Shown: positions 3,152 through 45,477, counted from the stretch's first letter. The stretch: 64,000 bases of DNA from Candidatus Zambryskibacteria bacterium RIFCSPLOWO2_01_FULL_39_39 (GCA_001823925.1 MHWB01000011.1:25471-89470), one strand, 5' to 3'. Notes: a model not told the origin generated them from the letters alone. Translations and numbers: made by a program.

Positions 3152-3409
3152 TTATTTATAAATATCATGCGTTCCAACGGCATGAAATCGTACATGGCCC
3201 GAATCAACAAAAGTGAAACCGATTCTGTAATAATAACTTATTGAGAAAGCCCAATAATCTTTCATTGCCCCATGCAACTTATGAGTTTTTAGTCGTAGAT
3301 CAAAAGGATTGTTTCTGAATATTGTCTCAATTGCCAACGCCTTCATTTTTACATCTTTTGGAAGTTTTTTGAACTGCTTTAAAAATTTCAGAGAATAATC
3401 AATTACCAT
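3152..3409 (-). CDS. Type II toxin, RelE/ParE family
   Basis: 85 aa; KLHGAMKDYWAFSI...RIGFTF pattern; immediately downstream of a small antitoxin-like ORF. Confidence 0.55.
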   Translation of the reverse strand: MVIDYSLKFLKQFKKLPKDVKMKALAIETIFRNNPFDLRLKTHKLHGAMKDYWAFSISYYYRIGFTFVDSGHVRFHAVGTHDIYK

Positions 3410-3414
3410 GATTA

Positions 3415-3630
3415 TTACATTAAATCTTTTAGAGATTTTAGTGTTTTAAATTTTCCCGTAGCAAAATCTTTTTCACTTTCCATAATACTTTCTATTAATT
3501 TTTGATCCTCAAATGCTCTAATAGAATCGCGAAACAATTCGCTTGCAGAGGCATAATTATTTTCTTTAATAAGATTATTTATTTTATCCCTAAAACTTTG
3601 AGGCATTGAAATGTTTAGCGTTGTTCTCAT
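3415..3630 (-). CDS. Antitoxin (ParD/CopG-like ribbon-helix-helix) paired with the 3152-3409 toxin
   Basis: 71 aa; position and size; 6-nt gap to the toxin. Confidence 0.5.
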   Translation of the reverse strand: MRTTLNISMPQSFRDKINNLIKENNYASASELFRDSIRAFEDQKLIESIMESEKDFATGKFKTLKSLKDLM

Positions 3631-12616: not shown

Positions 12617-12717
12617 TTGCGACGCCCCGCAAACCAGATATTGCCATTCCAGTTGCTGTCGTTACTGTTCACATTGACCTTGCGCTCATCACCGTTCCGG
12701 TTGAAGTAGACGTAACT
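12617..12717 (-). repeat. DGR template repeat TR1
   Basis: 101 bp, homologous to 13072-13172. All ~20 mismatches have T on the + strand here (A in the minus-strand sense). In-frame translation is Asn-rich. Confidence 0.85.
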
Positions 12718-12983
12718 CTGTACAAAAAACCCTCTATGCCACCACCCCTTGAAATTTTTTTAAAATAACTCGGAGTTGAATTTTATTTCGCATCATAATG
12801 CGATGGTATTCTGTACCAAGTATCTTCATTTTTTATTGAAGTTTCTACATACACCACCCTACCAAAAACCGTGATCCCCGATATTCTCGATGTATGAATA
12901 CTGGATTCGGTGGCAAGCATCCATAAACACTTGCTGATATTCACCTACTACCATATTTATATTAGCAAAATTTTGATAAATAG

Positions 12984-13015
12984 AAATCCCCATCCGCCGA
13001 AACGGGTGGGGATTT
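12984..13015. other. 13-bp-stem GC hairpin ~55 bp downstream of VR1 (minus sense); candidate DGR target-recognition hairpin/cruciform
   Basis: aaatccccatccg-ccgaaa-cgggtggggattt; one G-U pair. Confidence 0.6.
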
Positions 13016-13067
13016 GAAGGACAAAGTCCAAAGGATCCGAAAGACCCAAATGGACAAGTCCGAAGAT

Positions 13068-13682
13068 CTACTTGCGACGCCCCGCAAACCAGAGAGAGCC
13101 AAGCCAGAAGCTGACGAGACTGTCCACATGGACCTTGCGCCCATCACCGCGCCGGTAGAAGTAGACGTAACTGTTCTTTGCCCACTGCATCCCGTTGGGA
13201 TGTTTATCGGCAAAAGCCTGGTCATCTGCATTCACCTGCATTTGGGCTGCGTAGTCCGGGACAAGCCCACGTTCCTCAAACACTCGTGAAATGTCGGCGA
13301 CAGGGGTGTCTTTCTCGAGCGGGAAGAAGAGTAGGTCACCTTCTTCCGGGCCGTCCATGGGCATAGTCGCGAGGACTGTCTCGTCGACGTACCATGGTAC
13401 ACGATTGCAAGCAGAAAGTAATTGAGCCGGAGTTTTCGTCCGATCCACCTTGAAGTGGCGGATGATCACTTTAGCACGATGCTCGACGCGAGTTTTCAAC
13501 GACTCGATAAACTCTGCAATGAGTTCCTCCATCTCGTCATCTGAAACGCCTTGCACTATGTCTTTTGGGAAATTGGTACCGGCTTTCGGAAACTTGGCGA
13601 CAAATCGATCACCAATCTGTCGTGCCTGTTCCTGGGTCATTGTTTCTGTGGTTGCAATGGTTTTTTGTTCCATCGGTTGCAC
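13068..13682 (-). CDS. DGR variable target protein 1; VR at the extreme C-terminus; GC-rich gene; no signal peptide
   Basis: 204 aa; the C-terminal 34 codons are VR1; GC clearly higher than the flanks. Confidence 0.8.
   Translation of the reverse strand: MQPMEQKTIATTETMTQEQARQIGDRFVAKFPKAGTNFPKDIVQGVSDDEMEELIAEFIESLKTRVEHRAKVIIRHFKVDRTKTPAQLLSACNRVPWYVDETVLATMPMDGPEEGDLLFFPLEKDTPVADISRVFEERGLVPDYAAQMQVNADDQAFADKHPNGMQWAKNSYVYFYRRGDGRKVHVDSLVSFWLGSLWFAGRRK
13072..13172 (-). repeat. DGR variable repeat VR1
   Basis: Pairs with TR1; differs only at TR adenine positions; sits at the 3' end of the target ORF. The IMH-like end tttgcggggcgtcgcaa is shared with TR1. Confidence 0.85.
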
Positions 13683-13816: not shown

Positions 13817-13848
13817 TACACTGTCTTTACGGTCGTAAGAAGAGTGTA
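13817..13848. repeat. 32-bp near-palindromic element tacactgtctttacggtcgtaagaagagtgta (copy 1). Sits ~135 bp upstream (minus sense) of DGR target gene 1.
   Basis: Identical to 14438-14469. Confidence 0.8.
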
Positions 13849-14437: not shown

Positions 14438-14469
14438 TACACTGTCTTTACGGTCGTAAGAAGAGTGTA
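14438..14469. repeat. 32-bp near-palindromic element (copy 2), 12 bp upstream of the PaaX-like gene start; includes a TGTATAAT -10-like motif on the minus strand
   Basis: Identical to 13817-13848. Confidence 0.8.
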
Positions 14470-27510: not shown

Positions 27511-27550
27511 CAAGAGACAAGGTATCAGAGAGACACAGCGTCTGTGTTTC

Positions 27551-27662
27551 GAAAGAAGAAGCGATTCTCGGTATTCCACTCATAGTCGTTGTCGAGGCGG
27601 TTCACGTTCACGTTCCACTGCCTGTCGTTGCGGTTCGCGTTGACAACCGAGACACTTTGTAC
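27551..27662 (-). repeat. DGR template repeat TR2 (unrelated in sequence to TR1)
   Basis: ~112 bp, homologous to 27915-28027. Every mismatch is T on + here (A in the minus sense). In-frame translation is Asn-rich: VVNANRNDRQWNVNVNRLDNDYEWNTENRFFFRN. Confidence 0.8.
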
Positions 27663-27848
27663 GCCTTGTCTTCTGCTACACCACCCATTGAATACTCGCA
27701 GGGTTGAATCGAATTCGGAGCATTGTATTCTAAACTCCATAACAAAGCGCACCAACTATTTCTTTTTTTGAAGCCGACAAGTATCGTCGGCTTTGAATCG
27801 CCACCCCAAGAGTTACCCAAAGATGCCAGCGTGTTCAAAAACATAATA

Positions 27849-27878
27849 CCCCCTCGCACGAACTTGGTGCAAGGGGGC
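27849..27878. other. GC hairpin ccccctcgcac-gaacttg-gtgcaaggggg ~35 bp downstream of VR2 (minus sense)
   Basis: 10-bp stem with one mismatch. Confidence 0.5.
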
Positions 27879-27903
27879 ATAGGAACAAAGTTTCCGAAAG
27901 GGA

Positions 27904-28602
27904 TCAGAGGGTCTTGTTGCGAAAGAAGAAGCGATCCTCGGTATCCCACTCAGAGTCGTGGGCGAGGCGGCGCACGCTCACGCCCCACTGCCCGCCGCCG
28001 CGGTCCGCGCTGACAACCGAGACACTTGGTTCTTCACCTTCATTCTCGGCCTTCTCCTCCACGAAAAAGAAGTTGGCATAACCGTTGGTCCGAAGATCAA
28101 CGTCCTGTCCACCTTCTTGTTGCTCAATCAGAGTTTCGATGGTGGGTAGCGTTGTAACACAGCCCCGTTCCCTGAGAGTCTTAGCGAGCATTGGGATGTC
28201 GCCCGTAACCCCGAGGAAACTTTCAACGGCTTGCTTGAAAGTCGCTGGCGTGTTTAGTCGTTGGACGGAGAACTTGCTCTCCGGCTGAATTGACTGATCC
28301 TCCGGAAGCCATCCGTCCAGATCGGCGTCGCGGTAGCAATACCGCGTTTTGTCGATGAAGCAGTCGGCAGTCTTTTTCGCTCCCACAATCGCAACCTTGA
28401 CGGTCGCAACCAGCGAGAGAACCGATTTTACGACGATCTCAGCCGTTCCCTCGATAACCATCCTAACACGGGACAGAACATCCTCTTCGCACAAACTTTT
28501 GATTTGGCCATTGGTCCAATGACCACGCCGAAACGCGGCTTTCAGTTCTCCGGCCTGATCAACATCGAGCATCAAATTACTCATGGTTGTCTCCTTTTGC
28601 AA
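27904..28602 (-). CDS. DGR variable target protein 2; VR at the C-terminus; GC-rich; no signal peptide
   Basis: 232 aa; the C-terminal ~37 codons are VR2. Confidence 0.75.
   Translation of the reverse strand: MQKETTMSNLMLDVDQAGELKAAFRRGHWTNGQIKSLCEEDVLSRVRMVIEGTAEIVVKSVLSLVATVKVAIVGAKKTADCFIDKTRYCYRDADLDGWLPEDQSIQPESKFSVQRLNTPATFKQAVESFLGVTGDIPMLAKTLRERGCVTTLPTIETLIEQQEGGQDVDLRTNGYANFFFVEEKAENEGEEPSVSVVSADRGGGQWGVSVRRLAHDSEWDTEDRFFFRNKTL
27915..28027 (-). repeat. DGR variable repeat VR2
   Basis: Pairs with TR2; VVSADRGGGQWGVSVRRLAHDSEWDTEDRFFFRN versus the N-rich TR translation. Confidence 0.8.
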
Positions 28603-31463: not shown

Positions 31464-33833
31464 TTATTTTAAATTACCCCAATTTTCCCCCACACTACTA
31501 TTTACAACAATGGGTACCCCCAGCGTCTCCTCCTTTGTTAATGCACTCTCCATAATTAATTTTATTTGGGGTACTACTTTTTCTAAAATATCGCTATCAA
31601 TTTCATAGACAATTTCATCGTGTATCTGAAGTATTAAATTTATTTTTTCTCCTAATTTTTCTTCCTCCAAATAATTATTAACGTCCCTCATAGCAATTTT
31701 TGTAAGATCTGCAGAGGTACCTTGTATGGGAGCGTTCACAGCCATTCTCTCCGCAGCCGCTCTGATAAAAGGTATTTTGGATTTTATACCTTCAAAGTAT
31801 CTGCGTCTACCAAAAAATGTTTTGGTATATCCCAGCCTGTTTGCATCAATTTTGGTCTGATCTAGATAATTAGAAAGTCCAGAAAAAGTTTCAAAATATT
31901 TATTATAAAATTCTTGAGCAGTCTTCCTGTCTGTCCCAAGGTTACCTTGCAGAGCGCTTACCCCCATTCCATAGAGTATGCCGAAGTTTATAACCTTGGC
32001 CCCCCTTCTCATCTCCTTACTCACCTCTTTTTCTTCTACCCCATAAACTTCTGCCGCAACAGCAGAGTGGACATCTTTGCCACTCTTAAATATTTCTATA
32101 AGTTTCTCATCTTTTGAAAGAAAGGCAGCGATACGAAGCTCCACTTGAGAGTAATCAAAAGCGACCAAGCTCTTGCCTTTGTCAGAGACAAAAGCATCTC
32201 TTATCAGCCGCCCCCTATCTGTGCCTATGGGAATATTTTGTAGGTTAGGATTTTGAGAAGCCATCCTGCCCGTAGTGCTTCCTGCCAAAACAAACCTTGC
32301 GTGTAGTTTATTATCTTTGTCCACTAAATTTTGTATTGGTTCTAGATAAGTTGAGAGAAGTTTAGAGAGCTCTCTGTATTCCAAAATAAGAGGGATGATA
32401 AGGTGAGTATCTTTTAGCTTTTCTAATTCAGACTCTCTGGTGGACCTTGCGCCTCCGGAAGTCTTTTTCAAATTCTTTACAAAAAGCCCCATCTTATCAA
32501 AAAGTATTTCACCAAGCTGTTTTGGAGAAGAAATATTGAATTCTACTCCAGCTTGCTTCCATATATTTTTTTCTATTTTTGAGAGTTCTTTTTTGTATTT
32601 ATCAGCAAGCTTCTTTATAAGTTCTATATCTACCAAGACACCATGCTTTTGCATTTTATTTACCACGGGGATCAAAGGCTTTTCTATTTTTTCAAATACA
32701 TCCTCACTCTCCCTCCTTTTCAATTCTTCAAATATAACCTTCTTTGCTTCTTTAAAATTTCTTGTATTTGCGAAGTTTAAAATATCTTCTAATTTAGGAT
32801 CTGTAATATTGGAATCTGCCACCCAAAGAGCTAGGGAGACTTCTTCTAGCTCTCTTTCGTCTATATTTTCTTCCTGTTTTTCTTCTACAATTTCTCTGCC
32901 ATTTTTCTTCAATACTTCCTGAAGTTTGCCCGACATAGTCCTAAACTGCAGTTCCCCAAAAAGCTTCTGCGCATTTTCTAAATTTATTCCCTCTTTCCAA
33001 CTCTTCTTCGGCATTTCAAAGTCTATAGGAGCATCCCTTCTTATTGTTGCAAGCATTTCGCTAAACCTTGCTTCTTCTTCACCTTCCTTGAGCAACTCCA
33101 CAATTCTTTTCTTTATACCTTTTTTTATAAAAACATCTTTGTTCTTTTTTAAAGTTTTGTATATCTCTTCAATACTTCCAAAATTTACAATTAGTTCTGT
33201 CGCCGACTTTTCTCCTATACCTTCTATGCCTATTATATTATCCGACGGATCGCCCCGAAGCCCTTTGAAACTTGGTAAAAGTTTTGGGAGGAAACTAAAC
33301 CTTTCCAAAACAGCCTTTTCATCATAAAGTATTGTGTCGTTCAAACCCTTTTTTAAGGTGTAGACCATTACCCTGTTATCATCAACAAGTTGCATGGTAT
33401 CCATGTCTCCCGAAGCAATTATTATTTCCAAGTCTTTTTTTAATTTTTCTTTAAGCTCTTCTACAATAGTGCCTAAAATATCGTCCGCTTCAAATCCGGG
33501 ATGAGAATATGTAGGAATACCCAAAGCGGTACAAACTTCTTTGGACTTTTCCATTTGAGAAACTAATTCCGGGTCAGACTTAGCTCTGCCGGCTTTGTAA
33601 TTCTCATAAACCTCATGCCTATAGGTAGGTTTGGGCAAATCATAACAAGCAATTATATAGTCTGGTTTTAGATCCGTTGCTATCTTAAGTATCATAGTCG
33701 CAAGACCATAGAGAGCCCCCGTAGGCTGGCCGCTACTGGTCGCAAAGTCAGGCAGGGCGTGGTATGCCCTATGCAATATTGCGTGTGCATCAAGCAATAC
33801 TAATCTTTCTTTGGTTTTCTCCGGTTTTGCCAT
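31464..33833 (-). CDS. polA: DNA polymerase I (5'-3' exonuclease plus polymerase domains)
   Basis: N-terminal 5'-nuclease motifs; pol motif RRGAKVINFGILYGMG. Confidence 0.9.
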   Translation of the reverse strand: MAKPEKTKERLVLLDAHAILHRAYHALPDFATSSGQPTGALYGLATMILKIATDLKPDYIIACYDLPKPTYRHEVYENYKAGRAKSDPELVSQMEKSKEVCTALGIPTYSHPGFEADDILGTIVEELKEKLKKDLEIIIASGDMDTMQLVDDNRVMVYTLKKGLNDTILYDEKAVLERFSFLPKLLPSFKGLRGDPSDNIIGIEGIGEKSATELIVNFGSIEEIYKTLKKNKDVFIKKGIKKRIVELLKEGEEEARFSEMLATIRRDAPIDFEMPKKSWKEGINLENAQKLFGELQFRTMSGKLQEVLKKNGREIVEEKQEENIDERELEEVSLALWVADSNITDPKLEDILNFANTRNFKEAKKVIFEELKRRESEDVFEKIEKPLIPVVNKMQKHGVLVDIELIKKLADKYKKELSKIEKNIWKQAGVEFNISSPKQLGEILFDKMGLFVKNLKKTSGGARSTRESELEKLKDTHLIIPLILEYRELSKLLSTYLEPIQNLVDKDNKLHARFVLAGSTTGRMASQNPNLQNIPIGTDRGRLIRDAFVSDKGKSLVAFDYSQVELRIAAFLSKDEKLIEIFKSGKDVHSAVAAEVYGVEEKEVSKEMRRGAKVINFGILYGMGVSALQGNLGTDRKTAQEFYNKYFETFSGLSNYLDQTKIDANRLGYTKTFFGRRRYFEGIKSKIPFIRAAAERMAVNAPIQGTSADLTKIAMRDVNNYLEEEKLGEKINLILQIHDEIVYEIDSDILEKVVPQIKLIMESALTKEETLGVPIVVNSSVGENWGNLK

Positions 33834-34284
33834 GCTCGAATTTTACCACAATATGTGGAGGCATTATACCGGCAATTTGCTCAGGCCATTCTACAAAAAC
33901 AAGGTTTTGGGGGTCAGAAATTATCTCCTGCCAGCCTAAATTTATCATCTCTTCTTCTTTTTCTATGCGGTAGGCGTCGATATGAATGAGATTCTCGACC
34001 TCACCCCCCAACCCCCTCCCCTTGACAAGGGGAGGGGGAGAAGAAAACGGAAGTTTTCTTGGGGGTGAGGTCTTATAAATTTTCATAATAACAAAAGTGG
34101 GGCTTTGGATTGTTTCTTTTACACCAAAACTCTCGGCCAAATATTTCATAAAAGTAGTCTTGCCACTCCCCAATTCTCCATATAACCCAACCACTAGCGC
34201 AGAATCGGTTTTAGGTTTTAATTTTTGGGAAAAGTCGGTCGCTATTTGAGCTGTTTCTGAAACGTTTTTAGATAAAAATTCCAT
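33790..34284 (-). CDS. tsaE: tRNA t6A biosynthesis protein TsaE (YjeE ATPase) carrying an in-frame GC-rich palindromic element
   Basis: LYGELGSGKTTF P-loop, SPTF, HIDAYR; extra SPPRKLPFSSPPPLVKGRGLGGEV segment. Confidence 0.8.
   Translation of the reverse strand: MEFLSKNVSETAQIATDFSQKLKPKTDSALVVGLYGELGSGKTTFMKYLAESFGVKETIQSPTFVIMKIYKTSPPRKLPFSSPPPLVKGRGLGGEVENLIHIDAYRIEKEEEMINLGWQEIISDPQNLVFVEWPEQIAGIMPPHIVVKFEHGKTGENQRKISIA
33997..34072. mobile_element. GC-rich TIR-bounded palindromic element (copy A), inside the tsaE coding sequence in frame
   Basis: TIR gacctcaccccc / gggggtgaggtc enclosing hairpins ccccctcccc-ttgacaa-ggggaggggg and agaaaac-gg-gttttct. Confidence 0.7.
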
Positions 34285-34938: not shown

Positions 34939-34977
34939 TCCCTCTCCTGCTTCTAGGATAGAGGTTGGGGGTGAGGT
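34939..34977. repeat. Half copy (copy E) of the GC-rich element: hairpin ccctctcc-tgcttcta-ggatagagg plus TIR gggggtgaggt
   Basis: Matches the 3' half of copy D. Confidence 0.5.
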
Positions 34978-34988
34978 ATAATAAACTC

Positions 34989-37994: not shown

Positions 37995-38068
37995 TTAAGG
38001 ATTAATTATTTTCCTCTGGTTTTAAGTACCAAACGAGAAGTGTTTAAAACTCAATCTATCTAAGCCTA

Positions 38069-38422
38069 TTAAACCAGATGACTCCTTATTTTATCTAAAA
38101 CCTTTTCTGTATCATTATCCACTTCGATATTTGGGATCCTTAAAATTTTATAACCAAGCTCTTTGAAAAATTTGTCTCTTACGGCATCATATTCTTTTGC
38201 TTCTCTTGTATTGTGAATTTTCCCATCAAGCTCAACGATTAATTTTCCCTTGGCACAATAAAAATCCAAAATATACCCACCTATACTATATTGTCTTTTA
38301 AACCTGAAACCAAGTTTTTTATTTCTTAACTCTTCCCACAATAAATTTTCTTTAGGGGTAGCATTTTGACGCAACTCTCTTCTTCTGTCTCCTAATTCTA
38401 ATATGTTGTGGATTAATTTCAT
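38069..38422 (-). CDS. DUF559 / Vsr-like endonuclease-domain protein (paralog 1)
   Basis: 117 aa; GGYILDFYC...VELDG..H motif; ~55% identical to the 43427-43783 product. Confidence 0.7.
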   Translation of the reverse strand: MKLIHNILELGDRRRELRQNATPKENLLWEELRNKKLGFRFKRQYSIGGYILDFYCAKGKLIVELDGKIHNTREAKEYDAVRDKFFKELGYKILRIPNIEVDNDTEKVLDKIRSHLV

Positions 38423-38424
38423 AA

Positions 38425-38518
38425 AAAGTCCTCACCCCTTATCCCCTCTCCTTGGCAAGGAGAGGGGGCGAGTAATCTTCTACATTATACTAAAATCTAG
38501 ATTGGGGTGAGGACTTTT
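38425..38518. mobile_element. GC-rich TIR-bounded palindromic element (copy B), complete, abutting the DUF559 start codon
   Basis: TIR aaagtcctcacccc / ggggtgaggacttt; inner hairpin cccctctcc-ttggcaa-ggagagggg. Confidence 0.7.
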
Positions 38519-38562
38519 TAAAATAGGTGTTTGAAAATTGAGATTAGTGATATATTACTCTT

Positions 38563-43336: not shown

Positions 43337-43351
43337 ATTTTTACCGCTACA

Positions 43352-43887
43352 AACCTCACCCCATCCGACTTGCGTCGGATTGCCCCTCTCCTAGAAGCAG
43401 GAGAGGGGGAAGAAAAAAGATAAAAAATGAAATGGATACATAATAATCAAAGTCTTCGTGACAGAAGAAAAGAATTAAGAAAAAATTCTACTAGATCGGA
43501 ACAAGATCTGTGGTTTGAATTAAGAAATAGTAAATCGGGGGTCAAGTTTAAAAGACAACATAGTGTTGGTGGATATATCGCTGATTTTTATTGTCAGAAG
43601 CACAATCTTATTATTGAAGTGGATGGAGAAATTCATAATTCAAAAGAGGCTCAAGAATATGATATGGTTAGAGATAAATATTTTACAGAACTTGGATATA
43701 GAGTGCTTAGAATACACAATAACGAAGTAGACAAAGATATAGAAAAGGTTTTAGATAAAATTAAAAGTTATTTTGTTAATTAAGATGGGTTATGTCAACT
43801 TAATTGGGTAATTAAGTTTTTTCTTTATTTCTCCCCTCTCCTGCTTCTAGGAGAGGGGCAGATCCCGAAAGGGATCGGGGTGAGGTT
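43352..43887. mobile_element. Composite GC-rich TIR element containing a DUF559 endonuclease gene: 11-bp perfect TIR aacctcacccc / ggggtgaggtt with paired internal hairpins flanking the gene
   Basis: Left end 43352-43410 (TIR plus hairpins atccgac..gtcggat and cccctctcc..ggagagggg); right end 43831-43887 (cccctctcc..ggagagggg, gatccc..gggatc, TIR). Confidence 0.5.
43427..43783 (+). CDS. DUF559 / Vsr-like endonuclease-domain protein (paralog 2)
   Basis: 118 aa; GGYIADFYC...IEVDGEIH motif. Confidence 0.7.
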   Translation: MKWIHNNQSLRDRRKELRKNSTRSEQDLWFELRNSKSGVKFKRQHSVGGYIADFYCQKHNLIIEVDGEIHNSKEAQEYDMVRDKYFTELGYRVLRIHNNEVDKDIEKVLDKIKSYFVN

Positions 43888-45268: not shown

Positions 45269-45477
45269 TTTAGTTTTCTTATTAAATTATTATTTTTTAA
45301 CTCCTATATATCTGTGGATATGTGGATGAATTTTTAAATCTTTATTTTTTAACATACTATTGATTTTTAAATTTAAAAATTATGTTTATAATTTGATTGT
45401 TACTGATTTATTTTTTTAAATCTTTATTTTTTAAAAACAACTACTACACATATTATAAACATCTTATAAACACATAA
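45269..45477. promoter_or_regulatory. Putative oriC region between dnaA and dnaN: AT-rich, with tandem DnaA-box-like motifs TGTGGATA / TGTGGATGA at 45313-45329
   Basis: Matches the reverse complement of the TTATCCACA consensus; AT-rich unwinding-like stretch. Confidence 0.45.

Follow-up and report, generated by a model that had tools for sequence, protein, structure and literature searches.

The segment at positions 43352-43887 of the 64,000-nucleotide stretch of DNA analyzed here (the window) is a mobile cassette, in which an intact DUF559 gene is bracketed by two inverted triplex units of the BoxC / PIT / TM type. The best-supported model, to which a probability of roughly 0.5 is assigned, is a partnership between a nuclease and its repeats like that of REP/REPIN-RAYT, with repair-based copying of the units. 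The near-universal pairing of DUF559 with such repeats appears to be unreported, although the repeat family itself is known; no literature linking DUF559 to triplex repeats was found in searchable open-access papers and bioRxiv.

The host is a Patescibacterium with low-GC DNA (about 37%), and its TsaE shares 100% identity with a protein of Candidatus Zambryskibacteria RIFCSPLOWO2_01_FULL. The order of terminal repeats, hairpins and DUF559 open reading frame (ORF) given in the original prediction was observed directly, with every feature at its expected position, and the cassette can be described as follows.

43352-43887: cassette of 536 bp, DUF559 gene between inverted repeat units
43352..43424, minus strand: left arm of ~72 nt, an inverted copy of the right arm, reading on the minus strand hairpin b (CCCCTCTCC/GGAGAGGGG), hairpin a (ATCCGAC/GTCGGAT, GCAA loop) and purine tail GGGGTGAGGT
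43353-43408: left-arm triplex unit, 10/10 mirror triplets, 20-nt linker
43427..43783, plus strand: DUF559 gene, 118 aa, PD-(D/E)xK nuclease of the Vsr/EDxHD fold
43817..43887, plus strand: right arm, with hairpin b, hairpin a (GATCCC/GGGATC, GAAA loop) and tail GGGGTGAGGT
43833-43886: right-arm triplex unit, 10/10 mirror triplets

The terminal inverted repeat is perfect over 11 nt, as had been noted (AACCTCACCCC at 43352-43362 and its reverse complement GGGGTGAGGTT at 43877-43887); allowing at most one mismatch, it has five matches in the window versus 0.68 expected, a number reached by none of 100 shuffles. However, the inverted repeat is longer than originally described, extending over ~72 nt per arm, and the inner portions of the arms (43381-43424 versus 43817-43860) are 84% complementary. 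From the outside inward, each arm consists of the 11-mer, hairpin a, hairpin b and an AT-rich inverted repeat of ~16 nt. Hairpin b, CCCCTCTCC-N8-GGAGAGGGG, is identical in both arms and has exactly two occurrences (43383-43408 and 43833-43858) where none is expected, whereas hairpin a differs between the arms through compensating changes (atccgac/gtcggat versus gatccc/gggatc). Folded as single-stranded DNA, the cassette arms give two hairpins each (z = -5.0, -5.1 and -3.6). A promoter and terminator scan of the arms returned nothing above the shuffle background, and the arms are not terminator-like. The DUF559 gene is the sole ORF inside the cassette. AT-rich 22-mers repeated between dnaN and dnaA (window 45279-45434) are likely origin-region repeats, which places the cassette ~1.5 kb from the probable replication origin.

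The assignment of the ORF at 43427-43783 to DUF559 was confirmed (PF04480, E = 1.6e-33). The two DUF559 proteins of the window score 115.3 and 117.7 bits against a Pfam gathering cut-off of 20.6, and their only Pfam matches are DUF559 and MTES_1575, with no HUH Y1 (IS200/IS605-like) protein among them. The sequence also matches the solved DUF559 structure PDB 3HRL (E = 2e-24). When a structure model of the window protein (pLDDT 87.8) was searched using Foldseek, 3HRL (TM 0.67/0.83) and the catalytic domain of I-Bth0305I (0.64/0.76) were returned, with a weaker match to Vsr (E = 0.11); PvuRts1I/AbaSI and Vsr are structurally more distant than the first two. On the basis of this model, the nearest characterized fold is that of the catalytic domain of the homing endonuclease I-Bth0305I (PDB 3R3P). 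Residues D53, E64, D66, H70 and D79 are invariant across 32 sequences, and dN/dS is about 0.1-0.17 among homologs, with synonymous sites saturated, indicating that the protein is under purifying selection. The DUF559 protein is predicted to be functional and nuclease-like from its sequence and modeled structure. PADLOC gave weak matches to nuclease-domain models only, and a scan of viral contigs found just three relatives of the gene family, which gives no link to phages.

The repeats had been described as a GC-rich MITE, within a transposon-like system that was not recognized as described before; that the element is undescribed was not borne out, as it belongs to the BoxC / PIT / TM intrastrand-triplex repeats and resembles Rfam Whalefall-1. 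The BoxC repeats of Escherichia coli were renamed PIT elements and later TM/TMECO (Holder, 2015; PMC4666352), and have been known since 1992 through the earlier BoxC/PIT work as it is cited there (Bergler, 1992; Hoyne & Maher, 2000). Each unit combines a pyrimidine/purine hairpin with a purine tail, which is a mirror image of the hairpin's purine arm and follows after a linker; this linker is the variable hairpin a in the cassette units and ~3 nt elsewhere. The mirror relation was evaluated at 80 loci picked by DUF559 homology only, comprising 366 hairpin orientations with 87 distinct arms, and perfect mirror tails within 40 nt were counted against three controls.

Own flank: perfect tails in 154 of 366 orientations
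Flank borrowed from a unit whose arm differs: 9.6 +/- 3.0 perfect tails (maximum 20)
Own flank shuffled: 1.8 perfect tails
Direct instead of mirror register: 36 perfect tails

Mirror covariation of arm and tail is thereby observed directly. The tail base facing an arm A was A in 177 cases, T in 168, G in 10 and C in 12, and that facing an arm G was G in 746 of 776. Read from the sequence, this pairing is the code of a purine-motif intramolecular triplex, in which the tail can putatively fold back as the third strand of purine-motif DNA; the mirror/triplex relation as such is already published (Holder, 2015). Hairpin a covaries completely between copies, as judged by stem inspection because the MAFFT alignment of the long units was too poor for pair counting. 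The mirror tails, the covariation of hairpin a and a pair of SNPs described below suggest that the structure of the units is under selection.

The TM/TMECO repeats and the window units share the same three blocks, namely a pyrimidine arm, a purine arm and a mirror purine third strand, and have a near-identical core (CCCTCNCCC-N3-6-GGGNGAGGG-N3-GGGNGAGGG in TMECO and CCCCTCTCC-N8-GGAGAGGGG ... GGGGTGAGG in the window). Both are dispersed, multi-copy and often arranged as inverted pairs, and both lie at rearrangement-prone loci. TM repeats are found in more than 260 genomes, and TMECO oligonucleotides form a stable triplex in vitro, whereas no stable triplex was detected in vivo (Holder, 2015). 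The literal TMECO consensus and the loop limit of the ITxF search (1-6 nt) do not cover the cassette arms, where the first loop measures 6-8 nt and the second 18-20 nt; a short second loop (4 nt) is present only in copy B, minus strand. The second loop of the cassette arms is itself a stable hairpin of 18-20 nt, so cassette-type copies would have been missed by ITxF, and the window copies are regarded as a variant of the BoxC / PIT / TM family. Furthermore, unlike the published TM/TMECO repeats, one window copy lies within a coding sequence and the host is a low-GC Patescibacterium. The published repeats have no associated protein or mobility gene, whereas window-type units flank DUF559 genes; neither a flanking-gene function nor 'activities that provide genetic mobility' were reported for TM repeats by Holder (2015), where DUF559, ycjD or any endonuclease is not mentioned. 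Units were found in at least 120 metagenome loci.

Rfam Whalefall-1 (RF01762) matches the window with 25.3 bits at 43830-43887 and 18.4 bits at 38442-38514. Because the gathering score is 37, the right arm is no formal member, although it aligns to the full model (positions 1-56) and a seed member, ...CCUCUCC-UUUA-GGAGAGG...GGGUGAGGAU, is nearly identical in sequence to the unit. Whalefall-1 was described as a small RNA without gene association (Weinberg, 2010; PMC2864571), whereas the evidence from the window points to a DNA-level repeat linked to DUF559. At the gathering threshold, an Rfam search of the window and 20 loci returned only tRNAs, one Flavo-1 and one cobalamin riboswitch, away from the genes.

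Gene order is kept in related genomes (dnaA-dnaN-orf82-PBP1A ... RuvC-YebC-RuvB ... TsaE), and the comparison of empty sites in relatives that the original prediction had called for could be carried out. The insertion was directly observed: the 536-bp segment is additional DNA, and its ends coincide with the repeat termini.

43337..43885: DNA absent from the syntenic PBP1A/orf82 junction of relatives, consisting of 15 nt plus the repeat-bounded cassette

At this junction the stop codons lie 1 nt apart in L084 and the genes overlap by 9 nt in L086, whereas the window has 549 extra nt. The right repeat of the cassette terminates at the stop codon of orf82, which is overlapped by the final 2 nt of the arm. 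The empty PBP1A/orf82 site is devoid of any unit, and hence the gene and the units arrived together. No target-site duplication was found at the filled and empty junctions compared (PBP1A/orf82 and RuvB-YebC). Another candidate, L081, offers no empty site, since it represents the same locus as the window and is 99.97% identical.

The spacer between RuvB and YebC is a hot spot for insertions, and its contents differ among relatives.

Window 37995-38562: paralogous DUF559 gene at 38069-38422
L084 6351-6360 and L208 3161-3179: empty
L209 4654-4857: two-unit shell without a gene, ~125 nt
L210 5450-6289: unrelated ORFs without units
L082 2314-3298: a different DUF559 subtype in the opposite orientation

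Pairs of bAvd and reverse-transcriptase genes, the signature of a diversity-generating retroelement, also occur near the syntenic region (L082 6923-8329 and 13935-15317; L208 6189-7568).

Five units are present at four places within the 64-kb window, where 0.19 hairpins are expected. The copies outside the cassette, together with a further DUF559 paralog of the same genome assembly, are the following.

38069..38422, minus strand: paralogous DUF559 gene, 117 aa, 65% identical to the cassette DUF559
38428..38515: closed element B, composed of CCTCACCCC, hairpin b, a 36-nt AT-rich linker and GGGGTGAGG; z = -8.0
33997..34072: closed solo element A, composed of an outer stem, hairpin b and hairpin a; z = -8.5
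34940..34978, plus strand: partial degenerate unit C, a decayed hairpin b plus tail GGGGTGAGG
L218 1425-2494 (GCA_001823825.1 MHVV01000010): third DUF559 paralog, in a tails-out segment of ~1070 bp

The essential gene tsaE (33790-34284, minus strand) contains element A as an in-frame insertion. The insertion is a 76-nt closed triplex element that adds about 21-25 amino acids (TSPPRKLPFSSPPPLVKGRGLGGEV); TsaE orthologs of 143-147 aa lack element A, and other unit variants are found at the same loop in relatives. Between the window and L081 there are four SNPs in 13.6 kb, two of which fall on the two sides of a single base pair in hairpin a of element A, changed from A-T to G-C (window 34045/34056 versus L081 619/630). 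This compensatory pair suggests either that the hairpin was under selection very recently or that another copy acted as the donor in a gene conversion. Rickettsia palindromic elements are likewise short palindromic repeats situated in frame within conserved protein-coding genes; the in-frame insertion resembles that in tsaE, but the sequence family is unrelated, and we know of no triplex tail or partner nuclease described for them.

A gene-less copy of the element had been reported as fused to the start codon of the paralog at 38069-38422. The closed element (B) does exist, but it is adjacent rather than fused, lying 7 nt upstream of the start codon. Element B can be read as a triplex unit on either strand and has 10/11 mirror triplets. 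Its linker (38468-38503) takes the place of hairpin a, and homologous linkers lie upstream in L006 and L014. The linker contains a TATAAT-like box pointing toward the DUF559 gene (TGgTATAAT in L014), and the AT-rich linker may be a built-in promoter.

The segment of the third paralog reads GACCTCACCCC, hairpin a, hairpin b, 21 nt and ATG, followed further on by hairpin b, hairpin a and GGGGTGAGGTC; it also holds a 158-aa ORF with a weak HTH match, and occupies the TrxB/FtsZ site, as in L002 and L004. All three known DUF559 paralogs of this genome are therefore flanked by repeats, in support of the original prediction. The co-cargo ORFs within repeat-bounded segments are mutually unrelated (one HTH-like, one CDP-alcohol phosphatidyltransferase-like and others matchless), and there is thus no conserved second gene.

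The association between DUF559 and the element proved to be real and more general than originally noted, and it can be observed directly across phyla. A set of 80 DUF559 loci was assembled with one genome per species from at least eight phyla (Patescibacteria, Bacteroidota, Ignavibacteria, Chloroflexi, Cyanobacteria, Proteobacteria, Acidobacteria and Elusimicrobia). A hairpin with a pyrimidine/purine stem lies within 200 nt of the gene in 77 of the 80 loci (96%), compared with 13 of 120 other ORFs (11%) in the same loci, and hairpins occur on both sides of DUF559 genes across phyla. Hairpin density in non-coding DNA is 5.32/kb adjoining DUF559 versus 0.46/kb elsewhere in the loci; perfect triplex units are found near 56 of the 80 genes, at 1.89/kb versus 0.13/kb in the control. 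Sampling from the side of the repeat gives a complementary result: among 62 units in metagenome loci that were picked by unit sequence and have adequate flanks, three have a DUF559 ORF within 300 nt. This is far above chance, yet ~95% of the units sampled by sequence are solo, a majority that is itself directly observed and that bears out the expectation of elements without a gene. The pattern is one of many repeats and few genes. Solo copies are mostly single units or self-closed palindromes rather than terminal-repeat pairs.

The terminal-inverted-repeat layout did not hold as a family feature, since the 47 loci with similar flanks divide into 25 direct, 19 inverted and three ambiguous cases. 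Units are also variably oriented with respect to the gene, so there is no single conserved cis architecture, and in the closest homologs hairpin b ends ~20 nt upstream of the start codon. Protein identity by tail type is 48.9% versus 45.2%, a weak and taxonomy-confounded signal from a crude classification. DUF559 genes were among the predicted inversion targets of one study, which fits with flanking inverted repeats.

A comparable pairing is found in E. coli K-12, in which TMECO no. 9 (1,351,204-1,351,239; Table 1 of Holder, 2015) lies 168 nt downstream of the DUF559 gene ycjD. In the corresponding region (L214, NC_000913.3 1348000-1353500), unit positions near ycjD are 3205-3242 and 3392-3428; a degenerate unit overlaps the 3' end of ycjD, and ~40 nt of that end are duplicated downstream. 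Across complete E. coli genomes, TMECO-like repeats are present in 5426 of 5426 and ycjD in 3378 of 5426 (a count that covers ycjD alone among DUF559 paralogs), which means that the repeats persist without ycjD. Genomes lacking ycjD have the region replaced (TetR plus an RND efflux pump) with no clean empty site, and the insertion boundaries are therefore unreadable there.

We infer that the DUF559 nuclease binds or cuts the repeats and that cutting drives their spread. The nuclease would recognize the folded repeat (hairpin or triplex) in single-stranded or supercoiled DNA and nick or cut there; repair or recombination would then copy or move units, at times carrying the gene along with the units that flank it. 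This partnership model draws on the association seen from the gene side, the sampling from the repeat side, the flanking of all three paralogs and the evidence of mobility, as well as on the apparently selected structure, the nuclease-like protein, the proximity of ycjD to TMECO no. 9 and the in vitro triplex formation and rearrangement reported by Holder (2015). As in REP/REPIN-RAYT (Bertels & Rainey, 2011; PMC3116915), the repeats are short hairpins, many of which are solo and few of which flank a gene of nuclease or transposase type, and both kinds are structured as single strands. However, RAYT is an HUH Y1 transposase, whereas the partner here is a Vsr/EDxHD PD-(D/E)xK nuclease; moreover, window-type repeats carry a triplex-forming tail and occur in either orientation, and DUF559 is multi-copy and polymorphic in presence or absence. 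I-Bth0305I, discussed above, and free-standing homing endonucleases resemble DUF559 in that a small nuclease gene is placed precisely between conserved genes with empty sites in relatives. DUF559 differs from these in lying outside any intron or intein, in lacking a separate DNA-binding domain, in bringing its own conserved repeat flanks and in being rare in viral contigs (three loci).

Passive co-localization, in which small selfish or orphan genes gather at fragile triplex repeats, or repeats land preferentially beside DUF559, with no functional link between them, is considered unlikely. It would agree with the finding that TM loci are more rearranged than control sites (Holder, 2015) and with the differing cargo of the RuvB-YebC spacer. 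However, it does not account for hairpins lying within 200 nt of 96% of DUF559 genes but only 11% of other ORFs, on both sides and across phyla, nor for the joint arrival of gene and units at a PBP1A/orf82 site that is empty of units in relatives, and the non-DUF559 cargo in L210 has no units.

A host enzyme that processes unusual structures is also improbable; here DUF559 would resolve triplex or hairpin obstacles and travel with the repeats by mitigating their cost instead of spreading them. Vsr, which shares the fold, is a repair nuclease, triplex units block DNA polymerase in vitro (introduction of Holder, 2015) and DUF559 is under purifying selection, all of which would be in keeping with this reading. 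Against this, the presence/absence polymorphism and the several diverged paralogs in a genome of ~1 Mb fit better with a selfish module, and the direct flanking of the gene by units is left unexplained.

The reading closest to the original prediction is a classical autonomous transposon, in which DUF559 serves as transposase for an element with terminal inverted repeats and the solo copies are its MITEs. The perfect 11-nt terminal repeat inside ~72-nt inverted arms, the coincidence of insertion ends with repeat ends, the similarly tails-out third paralog with its extra ORF inside and the two-unit shell without a gene in L209 are all in keeping with this. The description nevertheless over-reads the data and is now judged quite unlikely. 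There is no target-site duplication at the compared junctions, the layout is unconserved, with 25 loci having direct and 19 inverted flanks, the solo copies are mostly single units or self-closed palindromes, and the only ORF has the Vsr/EDxHD fold, which has no known strand-transfer activity, in a cassette devoid of any DDE, HUH, serine or tyrosine transposase ORF. To our knowledge, TnsA is the only transposition protein of the wider nuclease superfamily, and strand transfer there needs the DDE protein TnsB; a Vsr-like nuclease alone leaves integration unexplained. The mixture of direct and inverted flanks, the missing target duplication and the lack of a transposase favor the nuclease-repeat partnership over a classical transposon.

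An RNA-level element, with the arms acting as structured UTRs or small RNAs of the Whalefall-1 type that control or stabilize the DUF559 transcript, is highly improbable: the sub-threshold Rfam match, the GNRA-like loops on the G-tail strand and the ~20 nt that separate the end of hairpin b from the start codon in the closest homologs are outweighed by the variable orientation relative to the gene, the ~95% of units that are geneless and the one in frame in tsaE, the arms that are not terminator-like, the absence of promoter or terminator activity in PIT elements (Holder, 2015) and the A/T-opposite-A, G-opposite-G code, which belongs to the purine motif, a triplex type that RNA reportedly does not adopt (introduction of Holder, 2015).

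If the partnership of DUF559 and its repeats is extended to the whole family, DUF559 would be the missing trans-acting partner of the BoxC / PIT / TM repeats, forming a widespread selfish system that recognizes the triplex or hairpin and drives both spread and instability, including ycjD and the 23 TMECO copies of K-12. This wider reading is put forward tentatively, at somewhat less than even odds. DUF559 proteins make up a very large orphan family for which a structure has been solved, and they supply the first candidate enzymatic partner of triplex repeats that have long gone unexplained; the link provides each side with a concrete hypothesis that is testable through ycjD and the TMECO repeats of E. 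coli K-12. A nuclease acting on the folded repeat would be a structure-specific, triplex-recognizing enzyme and would represent a new route by which repeats proliferate. Its action would also account for repeats inserted in frame, as in tsaE.

Other repeats in the window are unrelated to the triplex units. Two direct-repeat pairs of ~100-116 nt with 84% identity are located at 27545-28030 and 12617-13172, and a perfect 32-mer occurs twice, 621 nt apart (13817-13848 and 14438-14469).
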